Source of the DNA: Candidatus Heimdallarchaeum endolithica
GTDB taxonomy: Archaea > Asgardarchaeota > Heimdallarchaeia > Heimdallarchaeales > Heimdallarchaeaceae
Reading direction: 5' to 3'
NCBI GenBank assembly: GCA_021513715.1
Contig: CP084167.1
Span: 576,001-640,000 of the forward strand
DNA length: 64,000 nucleotides
Shown here: positions 35,845 through 64,000 of the stretch, piece by piece
Numbering within the stretch: position 1 is the first letter of the stretch
Layout of the letters: the number at the start of each line of letters is the position of its first letter
Notes under the pieces: model-generated
The model's input: the letters and a program-made list of their open reading frames with translations, nothing else
Told to the model about the DNA's origin: nothing
Databases searched by the model: none
Made by a program: the position numbers and the translations under genes

Positions 35845-38800
35845 ATGAGTAAATTGTCCAACAAAAAAATAGAGATTATAATCTTAATTTTTCTTCTTAT
35901 TACAATTAAAATCTACCAAGTAGAGCAAATAAAAATCAATAATCAATTTGATGAAGAAAAAAAAGATAATAATAGGAAACATTATACCACAATACATCAT
36001 TCTATTGAAATTACTTCAGATGACAATTTTTCTTCATTTCCTGGTTCTGGTACTAAAGATGACCCATATATTATAAAAGACTATATTATTTATTCATCTT
36101 CCAAATATGGGATATATATTTTTAATACCACAAAATATTTTATTGTACAAAATTGTAAAGTAAAATCTTCATATCTTAGTGGTCTTTATATATCTCATAT
36201 TAAAAATGGAACAGGAAAAATACTAGACAATGAATTCAACAGCGATAATTATGGAATATATGTTGACTCTTCAAATAATCTCTCAATTATTAATAACATC
36301 TATTTAGCTAAATATGGAATATATATGCATAGTTCAGCAAATAATTATATAGCCAAAAATGAATTTTACTCTTTATTTAAAGGAATCAACATTATATATT
36401 CCAATAACATAACAATAGAAAACAATACTTATTTTGAAAGCACACAAATTTCCATACGTCTACTTTATTCTAGTAATAATACAATAATAAATAACACTTT
36501 TACAAAAGTAAAAAAAGCTATTTATATTTATTATTCATTTAACAATTTTCTAACAGGTAATAATTTTACTAATAATGAAGTTGCAATTAATCTCATTTAT
36601 TCTGATAAGAATTTTATCTTTAATAATTCCTTTCAACTTAGTGAAATTAATTCAATAAATTTGGAATCTTCATTAAATAATTCAATAATAAACAATTCAT
36701 GTTTTTATTGTGATAACAATTCTATTTATCTAATTAACTCAGAATATAATTTAATATCAAACAATAGTTGTTACAATTGTAATAGCGCTATTTATCTTCA
36801 TAATTCTAGTTACAATCTACTAGAACACAATAGATTGATAAATAATTTGAAATATGGACTTCTTTTAATATCTTCAAATAACAATGATGTTAAAACTAAT
36901 ATTATAGTAAAAAATTCTTTTTATGGAATAAATCTATTATATTCAAAAAATAATACTATTTGGTTAAATTATATAGTATTTAACAATGTTGCAGTATCAA
37001 ATTCAGTTCAAGTTAACGATAATAATGGATTAAATTATTGGTATGAACCCATAATTAAAAAAGGGAACTATTGGAATGAATTCACTTATGGAAAAAATTA
37101 TTCAATCAACCCAGGACTTACGTCAGACTTATACCCACAAAATTCTACAGATACAGATGATGATGGCTTACAAGATGTAATTGAAATAAACTGTTTCTTT
37201 ACAAACATATTTAGCAATGATACAGACAGTGATGGAATAATAGATTATTGGGAAATTGATAATAATTTTAATCCATTAATTAATGATTCCTCACTTGACC
37301 TAGATAGAGATAATTTATCTAACTTGGCAGAGTATCAAAATAATACAGACCCTCATGATCCAGATACAGATGATGATGATTTAAGAGATGGAGACGAAGT
37401 TAACATTTATCTTACTGATCCTCTTGACTCTGATACTGACGATGATGGTATGCCTGATGGTTGGGAAGTAGAAAATTGTTTAAATCCTCTAGAAAATGAT
37501 AGTTACAATGATCCTGATGATGATAGTTTAGTAAATCTAGAAGAATATAACTATTCAACAAACCCAACTAATAATGACACTGATGGAGATGGTTTATCAG
37601 ACTATAACGAGATATATAGTTATAATAGTGACCCCACAGATATAGACACAGATAATGATGGTTTGTTTGATGGACAAGAAGTTAATTTGTTTTTAACTAA
37701 CCCTTTGGATTCTGACACTGATAATGACAAAATAGATGATTATTCTGAAGTATATTCGTTTTTTACTGACCCAAACTGTAATGACACTGATAATGATGGT
37801 TTGCTTGATGGTCAAGAAGCATATATCTTCTTTTCAGATCCAAATAGTAATGATACAGACCTTGATGGCTTATCAGATTATGAAGAAATAATTTATAATA
37901 CTAATCTAAAAAATAGCGATACAGACTTCGACGGACTTTCAGATTATGAAGAAATAAAAGTTTATTTTACTAATCCAAGAAGTAAAGACACTGATAGAGA
38001 TGGAAGGTCTGATGGTTGGGAAATAGAAAATGGATATAATCCGCTAATGAAAAATGTTTTCTTTGTAAAGAAGAGTATCTTGATGATTCTATTTTATATT
38101 AACATTTCTTATTCTATTCTAATCTTTCTACTCTTGCTATATATTCTCACAATAAAAAAAATTCTAATACAATTTTTTCAATGGCAAGAAGAACATTATT
38201 TAGAATTAAATAAATTATTAATTCAATATGAAAAAGCTACAAAAATTGTTTTTCTTTCTGATTTTATAAAGGATTTAACACCAGTGATTAACCAAACTAA
38301 AGAAGAAGTAAAAAGTTACCCTAAATTAAGTTTAATAAAAAAGATAAATAATACGAAGCAAGCCTATAAACTTTGGAAAAAGAAAATAGACATAAATAAA
38401 TATGAAAAAATGTACAATGATTTTTATTTTAGTGTTACACAATTAAATTTTTCTGAAATCAAGATAATCGATAATAATAATGATATAAGTGTTGAAAATG
38501 AGAAATTTGATACACTCTTAAAAGAAATAATAAATGAAAGAAGAATGTTAAAACAATATAAAAATCTAATAACTGACATGAAGTTTATTTTTTCATTTTT
38601 ACCTCGTTTTTTGGATGAGAACAAGAAGTTATTTTTTAAACAAATAAATGAAGAAATTGAAGAAAAGTTTGAAAATGCAAATTCTTTACTTATTAAAACT
38701 CTGAAATTATCAATAATTAAAGGAAATAAATTGTTAGAAAAAGAAGAACAATTGTCTAAACAAATAATTAAATCACTCTCAAAAGAAATTTTGCATCGTT

Positions 38801-39225
38801 TTGCTATTTATGAGAATGAATTGAAAGAATGGAAGAAAAGAAGTGAAAATGTCTTATCAGAATTATTGGAGGAAGATCTAAAAGAAGTGGAAGATTTGTT
38901 TCAAGAAGAGAAAAACATGCTCAAGGAGATAATAGTTCAGAATGAAATCAAATATAAAGAAGTGAAAAGAGTAAAAGTACTTATAGATGTATTATCAATT
39001 TATAGTGAAATCCCTTTAATTAAGCTACAACGGAAACTTGGTTTTTCAAAATTAGAAGATTTGGAGAAATGGTTAATAGAACTAAGTTCGTTTCTATCAA
39101 TAAAAATAGAAGGAGATAAACTAATTATCTCAGAGAAAGCTACAAAAGAATTAACACAATCAATAGATGAATTAATTAAGAGATTCACTGAATGGGAAAA
39201 AACAGGAGAAGGAAAAAAAACATAG
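35845..39225 (+). CDS. Array member 1: NosD-like beta-helix, Asp-rich Ca-binding repeats, TM, coiled coil, type I conserved tail
   Basis: FPGSGTKDDPYII, Asn-ladder repeats, GNYW, many DTDxDG repeats, TM near residues 745-770, [20 protein letters not shown]. Confidence 0.8.
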   Translation: MSKLSNKKIEIIILIFLLITIKIYQVEQIKINNQFDEEKKDNNRKHYTTIHHSIEITSDDNFSSFPGSGTKDDPYIIKDYIIYSSSKYGIYIFNTTKYFIVQNCKVKSSYLSGLYISHIKNGTGKILDNEFNSDNYGIYVDSSNNLSIINNIYLAKYGIYMHSSANNYIAKNEFYSLFKGINIIYSNNITIENNTYFESTQISIRLLYSSNNTIINNTFTKVKKAIYIYYSFNNFLTGNNFTNNEVAINLIYSDKNFIFNNSFQLSEINSINLESSLNNSIINNSCFYCDNNSIYLINSEYNLISNNSCYNCNSAIYLHNSSYNLLEHNRLINNLKYGLLLISSNNNDVKTNIIVKNSFYGINLLYSKNNTIWLNYIVFNNVAVSNSVQVNDNNGLNYWYEPIIKKGNYWNEFTYGKNYSINPGLTSDLYPQNSTDTDDDGLQDVIEINCFFTNIFSNDTDSDGIIDYWEIDNNFNPLINDSSLDLDRDNLSNLAEYQNNTDPHDPDTDDDDLRDGDEVNIYLTDPLDSDTDDDGMPDGWEVENCLNPLENDSYNDPDDDSLVNLEEYNYSTNPTNNDTDGDGLSDYNEIYSYNSDPTDIDTDNDGLFDGQEVNLFLTNPLDSDTDNDKIDDYSEVYSFFTDPNCNDTDNDGLLDGQEAYIFFSDPNSNDTDLDGLSDYEEIIYNTNLKNSDTDFDGLSDYEEIKVYFTNPRSKDTDRDGRSDGWEIENGYNPLMKNVFFVKKSILMILFYINISYSILIFLLLLYILTIKKILIQFFQWQEEHYLELNKLLIQYEKATKIVFLSDFIKDLTPVINQTKEEVKSYPKLSLIKKINNTKQAYKLWKKKIDINKYEKMYNDFYFSVTQLNFSEIKIIDNNNDISVENEKFDTLLKEIINERRMLKQYKNLITDMKFIFSFLPRFLDENKKLFFKQINEEIEEKFENANSLLIKTLKLSIIKGNKLLEKEEQLSKQIIKSLSKEILHRFAIYENELKEWKKRSENVLSELLEEDLKEVEDLFQEEKNMLKEIIVQNEIKYKEVKRVKVLIDVLSIYSEIPLIKLQRKLGFSKLEDLEKWLIELSSFLSIKIEGDKLIISEKATKELTQSIDELIKRFTEWEKTGEGKKT

Positions 39226-63900: not shown

Positions 63901-64000
63901 CAGAACCTGGAAAAACAGTAAGATCTTCATCAGAGTCAATTATTATTGGTGAGTGAGAAATATAACTGTTCTTTATTATATTATTAAAATTAGAATTAGA
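60968..64000 (-). CDS. Array member 8 (type II tail), 5'-partial
   Basis: Frame is open to the window edge (...[27 protein letters not shown]); tail [20 protein letters not shown]. Confidence 0.8.
62040..62625. repeat. Nested tandem repeats (69-bp units and a 213-bp duplication) in the Asp-rich stalk
   Basis: AAGCCATCTCC at 62061, 62130 and 62199; GGTCTAAAGGATCAGTATCG at 62221 and 62434. Confidence 0.85.

Follow-up and report, generated by a model that had tools for sequence, protein, structure and literature searches.

A surface-protein array in Candidatus Heimdallarchaeum endolithica whose shared cytoplasmic tail may dock a UFM1-type conjugation system

INTRODUCTION

No known organisms are more closely related to eukaryotes than the Asgard archaea, and to our knowledge almost nothing has been established about how their surface proteins signal to the cell interior. 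What, then, might be read from a locus in which one conserved cytoplasmic end recurs behind a series of dissimilar outer parts? The window considered here, meaning the whole stretch of DNA analysed, comprises 64,000 nt of Candidatus Heimdallarchaeum endolithica (GCA_021513715.1, CP084167.1 positions 576,001-640,000). A sequence-only reading had proposed that 35845-64000 of it encodes at least eight single-pass proteins with variable ectodomains and a constant tail, and eight paralogous ORFs of 845-1155 aa are indeed present there. They form a hot-spot array of surface proteins of type I. A literature search found no paper describing the receptor family or its tail; new here are the predicted fold class of the tail, its ~27 carriers, and its co-occurrence and adjacency with a UFM1-type cluster.

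THE ARRAY AND ITS MEMBERS

From N- to C-terminus the parts are ordered as signal peptide, FPGSGTxxxPYII cap, NosD-type beta-helix, TSP3 calcium stalk, transmembrane segment (TM), helical region and tail; Pfam, motif and TM/signal analysis bear out the common signal peptide, PGSGT cap, beta-helix, DxDxDG stalk and TM of the earlier description. An N-terminal hydrophobic signal and a single internal TM are found in each member, as is the motif [FC]PGSGTx[DE][DE]PYII (8/8). Ectodomain matches to NosD/Beta_helix (PF05048, PF13229) are above threshold in all eight, with E from 1e-14 to 1e-43, and those to TSP3_bac (PF18884) in seven, the exception being member 6, which is without this Pfam match though its DxDxD repeats are present (7-27 such motifs per member, 8/8 members). 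The ectodomain heads span ~190-510 aa and the cytoplasmic parts 295-472 aa, with a helical bundle of 200-370 aa between TM and tail; no signalling enzyme is present in the members.

Two classes of tail had been distinguished, members 1, 3, 4, 5 and 7 versus 2, 6 and 8, and alignment of the tails reproduces them. Member 1 (35845..39225, forward strand, 1126 aa) has signal, FPGSGT cap, beta-helix, 17 DxDxD repeats, a TM at ~745-775 and a 351-aa cytoplasmic region with a class-1 tail. On the reverse strand follow member 2 (39262..41820, 852 aa, class-2 tail), whose cytoplasmic residues 554-852 were modelled, member 3 (42074..45259, 1061 aa, class-1 tail), a mosaic paralogue of member 7, and member 4 (45489..48956, 1155 aa, class-1 tail), with 27 DxDxD repeats. 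Member 5 (50054..52591, class-1 tail) is on the forward strand, its start most likely being the ATG at 50054, giving 845 aa. The main body of member 6 (52766..56241, reverse strand) holds the FPGSGT cap, a long beta-helix, stalk, TM and class-2 tail, and its signal peptide is carried by a detached N-terminal fragment (57289..57375, reverse strand). Members 7 and 8, both intact and on the reverse strand, complete the series: member 7 (57561..60752, 1063 aa, class-1 tail) has an orthologue of 83.5% identity in the sister species, and member 8 (60968..64000 in the window and up to 64165 beyond it, class-2 tail) is 1065 aa in full, the signal peptide that had been presumed to lie past the window edge being present once the gene is read to 64165.

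Seven of the eight genes are intact. Leaving aside the IS481 split of member 6, every array gene consists of one continuous ORF, and both strands carry genes. The analogy with clustered protocadherins that had been offered breaks down at the level of mechanism, since every gene has a tail of its own and no constant exon is shared. A bacterial promoter/terminator scan of the region was uninformative, the host being archaeal.

TURNOVER OF THE ARRAY

IS481 copy 1 (49001..50010, reverse strand; transposase 49008-49946, 312 aa) separates members 4 and 5, whose divergent 5' ends form a 290-nt inverted repeat of 92% identity (48710-48999 and 50011-50300). Copy 2 (56258..57272, reverse strand, 1015 bp), which shares 97% identity with copy 1 but has its transposase ORF truncated to 262 aa, is surrounded by a 16-bp target duplication in direct repeat (56242-56257 and 57273-57288) and cuts the signal-peptide fragment of member 6 (57375-57289) off from the main body; with the IS and one copy of the repeat left out, fragment and body share one frame. 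The two copies and the inverted repeat mark active rearrangement. Gene conversion has occurred among array neighbours: in the pairs 3/7 and 4/5 blocks of 97-100% identity alternate with blocks of 50-80%, and members 4 and 5 have ~90 codons of their cytoplasmic region 100% identical. Between species the copy number of the array varies, 8 vs 3.

MEMBRANE TOPOLOGY

On which side of the membrane is the tail? The positive-inside rule alone is equivocal for class 1, whose members have K-rich stretches to either side of the TM, and so the call relies on the signal peptide with a single TM, on the distribution of Cys (3-15 per protein outside vs 0-1 inside) and on soluble carriers, the same tail being borne by LRR proteins that have no TM. 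All of these place it in the cytoplasm rather than outside the cell, the placement that had been named as refuting the receptor idea, and the members are accordingly type-I proteins, the transmembrane receptors with an intracellular tail that the sequence-only reading had envisaged.

THE TAIL: SELECTION AND FOLD

The last ~100 aa of the eight members align with 22 invariant columns, the conserved domain measuring ~95-100 aa and not the ~80 aa first estimated. Array tails end (S/A)ID(E/D)L..F(S/T)EWE...GKK, the consensus of the C-terminal helix, which is acidic and amphipathic, being I-D-x-L-L-x-x-F-x-E-W, followed by a lysine-rich G-x-G-K-K end. Class-1 tails are 48-91% identical to one another and class-2 tails 65-72%, with ~30% between the classes. 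The tail is under strong purifying selection, with dN/dS of 0.06-0.25 (flanking genes 0.03-0.11), and the heads, for which partner recognition or virus evasion had been suggested as possible roles, evolve fast, their dN/dS being 0.3-0.7, raised yet below 1.

Might these nevertheless be ordinary adhesins or envelope proteins, their tails alike only because neighbouring genes have lately been duplicated and converted? The conversion seen in members 3/7 and 4/5 is real and the rearrangement marked by the IS481 copies and inverted repeat is active, but tail dS, at 0.4-1.9, is as high as in the remainder of the gene while tail dN is low; the two classes have diverged to ~30% identity yet keep the 22 positions; and the motif is retained on unrelated proteins of the same genome, in other Asgard families and in distant genomes. 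Recent duplication devoid of purifying selection, which had been named as another outcome that would refute the receptor idea, is thus already contradicted by per-domain dN/dS and by the distribution of the tail, and the adhesin explanation now deserves very little credence.

Profile matches and modelling together predict that the tail is a PCI-type winged helix with a C-terminal helix and the G-x-G-K-K end. In member 1 (38923..39222, forward strand) the module would comprise a winged helix (H-b-H-H-b-b), the C-terminal helix and G-x-G-K-K; it takes up the last 300 coding nt of members 2, 3 and 4 (39265-39564, 42077-42376 and 45492-45791), 5 and 6 (52289-52588 and 52769-53068), and 7 and 8 (57564-57863 and 60971-61270). 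Among 41 tails, Pfam PCI (PF01399) is matched at E<1 by 16 (best 2.5e-6), CSN8_PSD8_EIF3K by 7 and Paf67 by 4; the member-1 tail scores 20.2 bits against the PCI profile, whose curated cut-off is 22, and one soluble carrier exceeds that with 29.7 bits. Searched by sequence against the PDB, the tail gave sub-threshold matches only (bS18, eIF3e and a PCI protein, E at least 0.1); the cytoplasmic parts found no match in NCBIfam, nor the member-2 cytoplasmic region a usable one in the ESM Atlas. The AF2 model of that region (residues 554-852, pLDDT 82.5) has the PCI fold order of helical N-part, winged helix and C-terminal helix, and of the Foldseek rows listed for it 45/45 belong to lid, CSN or eIF3 structures, at E values of only 1e-3 to 4e-2 and a global TM-score of ~0.2. 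Over 60-66 residues the winged helix by itself superposes on those of CSN3, CSN7 and eIF3k with an rmsd of 1.5-2.1 A (Z 7.8-9.6); on those of UFL1/DDRGK1 (8c0d_E, 8ohd_C) it does so with Z 7.6-8.3. The helical region that precedes it resembles a large variety of unrelated long-helix bundles, among them CATCHR tethers, MukF, syntaxin and STAT (Z 8-10), non-specifically.

PCI subunits of the lid, CSN and eIF3 (PF01399, PF10075; Rpn12 4b0z, CSN7 3chm, CSN3 4d18_C, eIF3k 1rz4) have the order helical region, winged helix, C-terminal helix in common with the tail. Here, however, the tail terminates single- or multi-pass membrane proteins and LRR/WD40 proteins, the helices before it are modelled as long antiparallel bundles instead of TPR-like repeats (with the low global TM-score just given), the terminal I-D-x-L-L-x-x-F-x-E-W...G-K-K signature is peculiar to the tail family, and the family has no known MPN partner or complex of fixed stoichiometry. 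Could the winged helix instead bind DNA, the proteins being membrane-tethered transcription factors freed by cleavage? Generic winged-helix repressors (MarR, ArsR, Sso10a) do figure among the weak fold matches, but the best matches in sequence and fold are PCI-type protein-binding winged helices. The notion, scarcely credible to us, was rejected on charge: over the 41 tails the recognition helix and wing are neutral to acidic on average (mean net -0.95 and -0.68), with -3.2 for the helix that follows.

CARRIERS OF THE TAIL

As the constant region of the array the tail is carried by all eight members, as had been claimed, but it is not confined to them: ~27 proteins of the genome end in the module, FG-GAP propeller receptors and soluble LRR proteins among them. 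The module is always at the extreme C-terminus, and its carriers include beta-helix, FG-GAP and TSP3 receptors, LRR and WD40 proteins and small proteins, with both single-pass and multi-pass membrane proteins. In one receptor of 1610 aa the TM is followed at once by the helix and GKK, without the winged helix, and an HMM of the helix alone recovers additional family members. Worldwide the tail is rare, with 128 cluster representatives.

This range of carriers, from FG-GAP receptors to soluble LRR proteins, suggests that the tail behaves as a common cytoplasmic docking box, by analogy with the logic of an F-box or a death domain. Like F-boxes and other substrate-receptor boxes it is small, conserved and, in the soluble members, fused to WD40/LRR domains; unlike them it is C-terminal, of unrelated fold and also present on receptors whose recognition domain is extracellular. 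The family offers a concrete, testable module: a small cytoplasmic box common to many receptors, whose outer domains, integrin-like propellers included, are interchangeable.

A UFM1-TYPE CLUSTER AS CANDIDATE PARTNER

What might such a box dock? That the tails share an intracellular partner, as had been supposed, is plausible, and the candidate to which co-occurrence and adjacency point is a UFM1-type conjugation cluster ~75 kb upstream of the array in the same genome. It encodes a UBA5-like E1, a JAB/JAMM protease, a Ubl, a UFC1-like E2, an EAP30 (ESCRT-II-like) protein and an SPFH protein (EAP30 match 7.5e-9, Band_7 9e-12). Human UFC1 is the only PDB match of the E2, in which, of eight residues aligned to the helix-binding groove of UFC1, 4 are identical and 2 conservative. 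Across a sample of 201 Asgard genomes a UFC1-like E2 is found in 11/12 with at least three tail matches vs 2/189 others, a count in which kin genomes are not independent and for which the threshold of three was chosen after inspection of the data. Tail genes are 0-3 kb from the cluster in four lineages (G003/G157; G206 with a JGI contig; G040, of another family of the phylum; and G153), in differing arrangements. Neither the genome studied nor that of the sister species has a tail gene abutting the cluster, the closest being >20 kb off; UFM1-type genes were not found near the carriers P0075, P0029, P0064 and P0070; and UFC1 was undetected in five genomes with full-length tails (G094, G142, G147, G129, G180).

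In human UBA5 the UFC1-binding sequence involves L394, L397, M398, M401 and M404 (PMC8481289), and the consensus of the tail helix fits this hydrophobic spacing (i, i+3, i+4, i+7, i+10), a match that depends on a post-hoc regular expression; the cluster E1 and JAB proteins have similar helices at their ends. With a tail-helix HMM the E1 C-terminus is absent from the best 60 matches. The UFL1 helix occupies the same UFC1 groove as that of UBA5, and UFBP1, which has a TM, coiled coil and winged helix, is itself ufmylated (PMC10438457). Asgard relatives of UFL1/DDRGK1 were reported by Picchianti et al. 2023, with UFC1 and UFM1 observed exclusively in eukaryotes (PMC10183829). Pfam DDRGK (PF09756) gives only E values of 0.14 and 0.57 in the present genome, both outside tail genes, and UFL1/E3_UFM1_ligase (PF09743) gives 21.7 bits there at 2186264-2186596, which is not a tail gene; a 'faint' precomputed match to the UFL1 profile is on the distant carrier P0064.

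Since the tail tracks with the cluster, it may link receptors at the surface to a tagging or sorting route. The reading that we favour, tentatively, is of a surface-protein array whose tail docks the UFM1-type cluster of the same genome, with tagging of the receptors. The tail helix would dock the UFC1-like E2 as the UFC1-binding helices of UBA5 and UFL1 do in eukaryotes, and the tag would then go onto the terminal lysines or a client close by and so single the receptor out for sorting or turnover. That the cluster is the partner, that the interaction is physical, and that tagging and its consequence ensue, is what we infer as most likely.

Alternatively, the tail may be purely an assembly module, its winged helices packing side by side and its C-terminal helices bundling, as in PCI subunits, so that receptors and soluble LRR/WD40 carriers form homo- or hetero-oligomeric submembrane platforms with no tagging. 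The match in fold and order to PCI subunits, the many carriers within one cell and the genomes that have tails without UFC1 are all congenial to this, as is the suggestion of Makarova et al. 2024 (PMC10936438) that the PCI-like winged helices of membrane kinases in archaea oligomerise. It leaves unexplained, however, both the repeated adjacency and co-occurrence with the cluster and the helix-only receptor, and neither an MPN partner nor a horseshoe set has been identified; we consider it rather unlikely.

Direct binding of the tail to ESCRT-type sorting machinery (EAP30/Vps22-36-like or Vps4), leading to vesicles or protrusions with no covalent tag, would also account for the neighbourhood, EAP30-family and SPFH genes belonging to the conserved cluster beside which tail genes recur; adjacency cannot separate this from tagging because it concerns the whole cluster. 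The terminal amphipathic helix may be MIM1-like in look, and PCI-like winged helices occur on membrane proteins in archaeal ESCRT loci (PMC10936438). The tail profile, however, has no significant similarity to the EAP30-like protein of the cluster (nor to its SPFH, E1, E2 or JAB proteins), and we regard direct ESCRT binding as quite improbable.

Returning to docking of the cluster with tagging, a bolder form of it would make the tail a one-piece archaeal UFM1-ligase scaffold, with a PCI-like winged helix of the DDRGK1/UFL1 kind, UFC1-docking helix and acceptor lysines, set on dozens of surface receptors and on cytosolic LRR/WD40 adaptors; UFM1-type tagging in the Heimdall and Loki groups, read by the ESCRT-II-like EAP30 protein and a scaffold of SPFH type, would sort or remove receptors. 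This we think doubtful, but were it true the tail would be a prokaryotic forerunner of both tag-dependent receptor down-regulation and membrane-anchored UFMylation. If the link to the cluster is at least physical, tag-dependent handling of membrane receptors would be older than eukaryotes and the UFM1-type pathway of archaea would gain the ligase or substrate side that it has so far lacked.

KNOWN SYSTEMS COMPARED

With DDRGK1/UFBP1 and the UFL1 helix (8ohd, 8c0d; PMC10438457) the tail proteins appear to have in common a membrane anchor, a helical spacer, a PCI-like winged helix, a short amphipathic helix potentially able to dock UFC1, adjacent lysines, and a genomic link to a UBA5/UFC1-type cluster. 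Unlike DDRGK1, which has an N-terminal anchor and needs UFL1, the array members combine these in one chain at the C-terminus of large-ectodomain type-I receptors, and the family is undetected by Pfam DDRGK and E3_UFM1_ligase in its own genome. In the archaeal ESCRT loci described by Makarova et al. 2024 (PMC10936438), membrane Ser/Thr kinases likewise end in a PCI-like winged helix. Those proteins are similarly archaeal, membrane-associated and tied to membrane-remodelling genes; they differ in being kinases of Euryarchaeota-type loci.

In its tandem paralogues, fast and length-variable ectodomains and conserved cytoplasmic part, with copy number variable between species and with gene conversion, the array resembles plant LRR receptor-like kinases and the KIR/LILR clusters. 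The tail differs from these in the absence of a kinase or other enzyme, and we know of no cell-cell signalling in this archaeon. Even without the UFM1-type link, the array clearly exemplifies a receptor repertoire that is diversifying rapidly in an archaeon.

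The receptor array and its turnover

The window spans 576001-640000 on the closed, 3.33-Mb chromosome of the Asgard archaeon Candidatus Heimdallarchaeum endolithica (GC 30.8%). In a region whose flanks hold archaeal Nre, AFOR and other genes, ORF listing and translation gave eight large genes from position 35845 to the end of the window, in keeping with the array of at least eight that the sequence-only reading had claimed. The architecture proposed for these members (numbered 1 to 8) stands in most respects. NosD/right-handed beta-helix domains form the variable heads in 8/8, the cap motif [FC]PGSGTx[DE][DE]PYII is present in all eight, and a hydropathy scan showed in each a signal-like segment at the N-terminus and a single internal transmembrane (TM) segment, the gene of member 8 extending 165 nt past the window end to where, as had been supposed, its signal peptide lies. 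A DxDxDG stalk had been ascribed to every member; DxDxD repeats do occur throughout (7 to 27 per member), but the bacterial TSP3 profile is reached by only 7/8. Heads range from ~190 to 510 aa and cytoplasmic parts from 295 to 472 aa. Alignment of the last 100 aa, with 22 invariant columns, splits the shared C-terminal module, the tail, into the two classes anticipated (members 1, 3, 4, 5, 7 and members 2, 6, 8), with ~30% identity between them.

The array is confirmed, with corrections: all eight members are present, but member 6 is not intact, its gene being interrupted by an IS481 copy (1015-bp, with a 16-bp target duplication), upstream of which a signal-peptide fragment is in frame with the body when the IS is skipped. 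Another IS481 copy (copy 1), 97% identical to that one, separates members 4 and 5, whose 5' ends diverge; around it (window 48710-50300) those ends form a 290-nt, 92% inverted repeat, a geometry that would permit inversion or exchange between both genes. Gene conversion among array members is real, with blocks 97-100% identical alternating with blocks of 50-80% in the pairs 3/7 and 4/5. At the syntenic site of the sister species, Candidatus Heimdallarchaeum aukensis, which begins after the same radical-SAM gene, there are only three members and an IS481, as against eight members here; the locus turns over. Identity of the three to members 8, 7 and 6 here is 60-84%, and the one corresponding to 6 is truncated. 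Upstream of the array are a 1140-aa Big_7 (bacterial Ig) protein (window 7907-11329) and an IS605 OrfB/Cas12f-like TnpB gene (window 22141-23385).

Topology and selection

A cleavable signal followed by one TM segment places the C-terminus inside the cell, as expected of the transmembrane receptors with an inner tail that had been proposed. The outer part is strongly acidic and has 3-15 cysteines, the inner part 0-1; LRR proteins with no hydrophobic segment end in the same tail. The N-terminus of a WD40 protein carrying the tail is ambiguous, and the positive-inside rule by itself is equivocal for class 1 members.

Is tail conservation just a residue of recent copying? In paralogue comparisons tail dN/dS is mostly 0.09-0.16 (at most 0.32), at a dS of 0.4-1.9 that is similar to the remainder of the gene. 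Heads, stalks and the helical region before the tail give 0.2-0.7. Measured against sister-species orthologues, dN/dS is 0.06-0.22 for the tail, 0.30-0.55 for heads and 0.03-0.11 for five flanking genes. The conservation of the tail is thus a mark of constraint and not of recent duplication alone.

Carriers of the tail beyond the array

A profile search found ~27 carriers in the genome, with the module always at the extreme C-terminus. They include additional beta-helix/TSP3 receptors, the longest of 2273 aa, five integrin-alpha-like FG-GAP/propeller + TSP3 receptors, soluble LRR proteins (264-615 aa), the WD40 protein, and small proteins of 156-299 aa. In one further carrier, a 1610-aa TSP3 receptor outside the window (G000:C1:450491-455323, on the same chromosome) there is no winged helix, and the cytoplasmic part of ~30 aa presents N-I-D-K-L-L-E-E-Y-D-K-W and GKKVN straight after the TM segment; retention of the terminal helix on its own suggests that it can serve as an autonomous short docking motif.

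Globally the module is rare: 128 cluster representatives (E<=1e-3) among 1.8 billion proteins, single-pass, multi-pass and soluble, almost all with it C-terminal and, where the source is named, from Heimdallarchaeia. Most of 201 Asgard genomes surveyed have one full-length module or none; expansion is seen in this genus (25 and 14 matches) and a handful of others.

Fold of the tail

Pfam profiles reached by 41 aligned tails were PCI (16/41, best 2.5e-6), CSN8_PSD8_EIF3K (7/41) and Paf67 (4/41). In the AF2 model of the tail (pLDDT 70) a helix and a strand are followed by two helices and two strands, and a long C-terminal helix closes the module; the whole cytoplasmic region of member 2 is modelled as seven long helices leading to the same winged helix and the terminal helix (pLDDT 82.5, pTM 0.70). 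With the latter model all 45 Foldseek matches listed were PCI-complex entries (lid, CSN or eIF3), the matches being weak (E 1e-3 to 4e-2, global TM-scores low), and an all-against-all structural search ranked Rpn12 top (Z 10.5). In the structural search the winged helix superimposed over 60-66 residues on those of CSN3, CSN7 and eIF3k (1.5-2.1 A, Z 7.8-9.6) and matched the winged helices of UFL1/DDRGK1 at Z 7.6-8.3; matches of the preceding helical bundle were non-specific. The recognition helix and wing are neutral to acidic on average, which argues against a DNA-binding winged helix. Two PCI-profile matches above the Pfam cut-off lie outside the tail family, at G000:C1:1307767-1308018 (1002 aa frame) and 1187484-1187642 (149 aa frame).

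Beside these PCI-complex likenesses stands the main rival to what is proposed below, namely that the tails engage in plain PCI-like self-assembly. The evidence on the other side comes from gene neighbourhood, co-occurrence and the terminal helix.

Association with a UFM1-type cluster

A six-gene UFM1-type cluster lies ~75 kb upstream of the array (531.5-536.3 kb), in which profile matches identify ThiF, JAB, a member of the EAP30/Vps36 family (7.5e-9) and a protein of SPFH type (9e-12). The sole PDB match of the sister-species UFC1-like E2 was human UFC1 (E 0.007). Across the eight aligned positions of the helix-binding groove, the archaeal E2 has four identical residues and two conservative changes. 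The UFC1-like frame here (G000:C1:533830-534414; L055, the cluster locus, about 2280-2862) is open for 194 aa, of which the first ATG/GTG/TTG leaves 111 aa; the sister-species ORF has 193 aa with an ATG, and a non-canonical start or recent start-codon loss may be considered.

Tail genes adjoin such clusters elsewhere, in an arrangement that differs each time. Three tail-bearing proteins directly follow a ThiF-JAB-small ORF-UFC1 gene set on one metagenome contig (64 kb). A second assembly has a tail receptor of 1198 aa inserted between the UFC1-like gene and an EAP30/SPFH pair, and another two tail genes lie 1-3 kb off. Two Asgard genomes (G003 and G157) each have a tail gene, for a protein of 716 aa, that diverges from ThiF. 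In G040, from a different family of the phylum, two TM proteins assigned to the tail family by profile match are 2.1 kb upstream of the cluster; this genome also has an apparent Ubl and UFC1-like E2 fusion in one 272-aa ORF (L069, G040:C36, 16584-17402). In G153 the UFC1-like gene is followed, after 42 bp, by the gene for a 376-aa protein of two tandem tail-like modules (L075, G153:C301, 2208-3338, minus strand), in the slot held by the EAP30-like gene in Heimdallarchaeum. No adjoining tail gene was seen in Heimdallarchaeum, G178 or G118, and several other contigs were too short to tell. In the present genome a 662-aa beta-helix protein with a signal peptide and no internal TM segment detected (G000:C1:525354-527342) lies 4.2 kb upstream of the cluster; near its C-terminus is a weak, non-significant tail-like stretch (I-I-D-S-L-L-D-K-F).

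The UFC1-like gene is present in 13/201 Asgard genomes, in 11/12 of those with >=3 tail matches versus 2/189 others (Fisher p 2e-15, kin genomes not being independent and the threshold having been picked after the data were seen). Five genomes with full-length tails, in which UFC1 was not detected, are counter-examples.

Proposed docking of UFM1-type machinery

In eukaryotes UBA5 (E1) and UFL1 (E3) each bind the same UFC1 groove via a short amphipathic helix, and UFBP1/DDRGK1, itself ufmylated, is a membrane protein with a TM segment, coiled coil and PCI-like winged helix that is positioned beside that helix (PMC8481289, PMC10438457). The terminal helix of the tails, with consensus A-I-D-x-L-L-x-x-F-x-E-W-E-x-x-G-x-G-K-K, has the hydrophobic spacing of the UBA5 helix. 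The archaeal cluster E1 terminates in V-D-E-L-I-Q-N-L-type helices and the JAB of this genus in K-I-D-L-L-L-E-E-L; both are among the 12 of ~2280 non-family ORFs that match a loose C-terminal-helix pattern devised post hoc. The cluster E1 was not among the best 60 matches of a helix HMM search, and Pfam DDRGK and UFL1 profiles did not detect the tail family in this genome. Resemblance of the tail, E1 and JAB to the UFC1-binding helix is suggestive only.

Cluster adjacency, co-occurrence and this likeness to the UBA5/UFL1 system are why we lean, tentatively, towards docking of UFM1-type machinery, the candidate partner, as the likeliest role of the tail: it would act as an E2-recruiting adaptor and, alternatively or in addition, would itself be a substrate. 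The first interpretation, of receptors converging on a common intracellular partner, is partly supported and sharpened.

Literature searches revealed no publication that describes the receptor family, and the genome paper does not discuss the array genes. PCI-like winged helices have been described on archaeal membrane kinases in ESCRT loci (Makarova et al. 2024, PMC10936438), and Asgard relatives of UFL1/DDRGK1 have been reported, with UFC1 and UFM1 observed exclusively in eukaryotes (Picchianti et al. 2023, PMC10183829). The receptor system relates to known PCI/DDRGK1-like adaptors and receptor arrays, and its proposed link to Ubl tagging is specific and can be tested. The sole Pfam E3_UFM1_ligase match in the genome (G000:C1:2186264-2186596; 21.7 bits, or 27.7 with neighbouring stretches) falls in a 252-aa frame that lacks the tail and may encode a winged-helix protein of UFL1 type.
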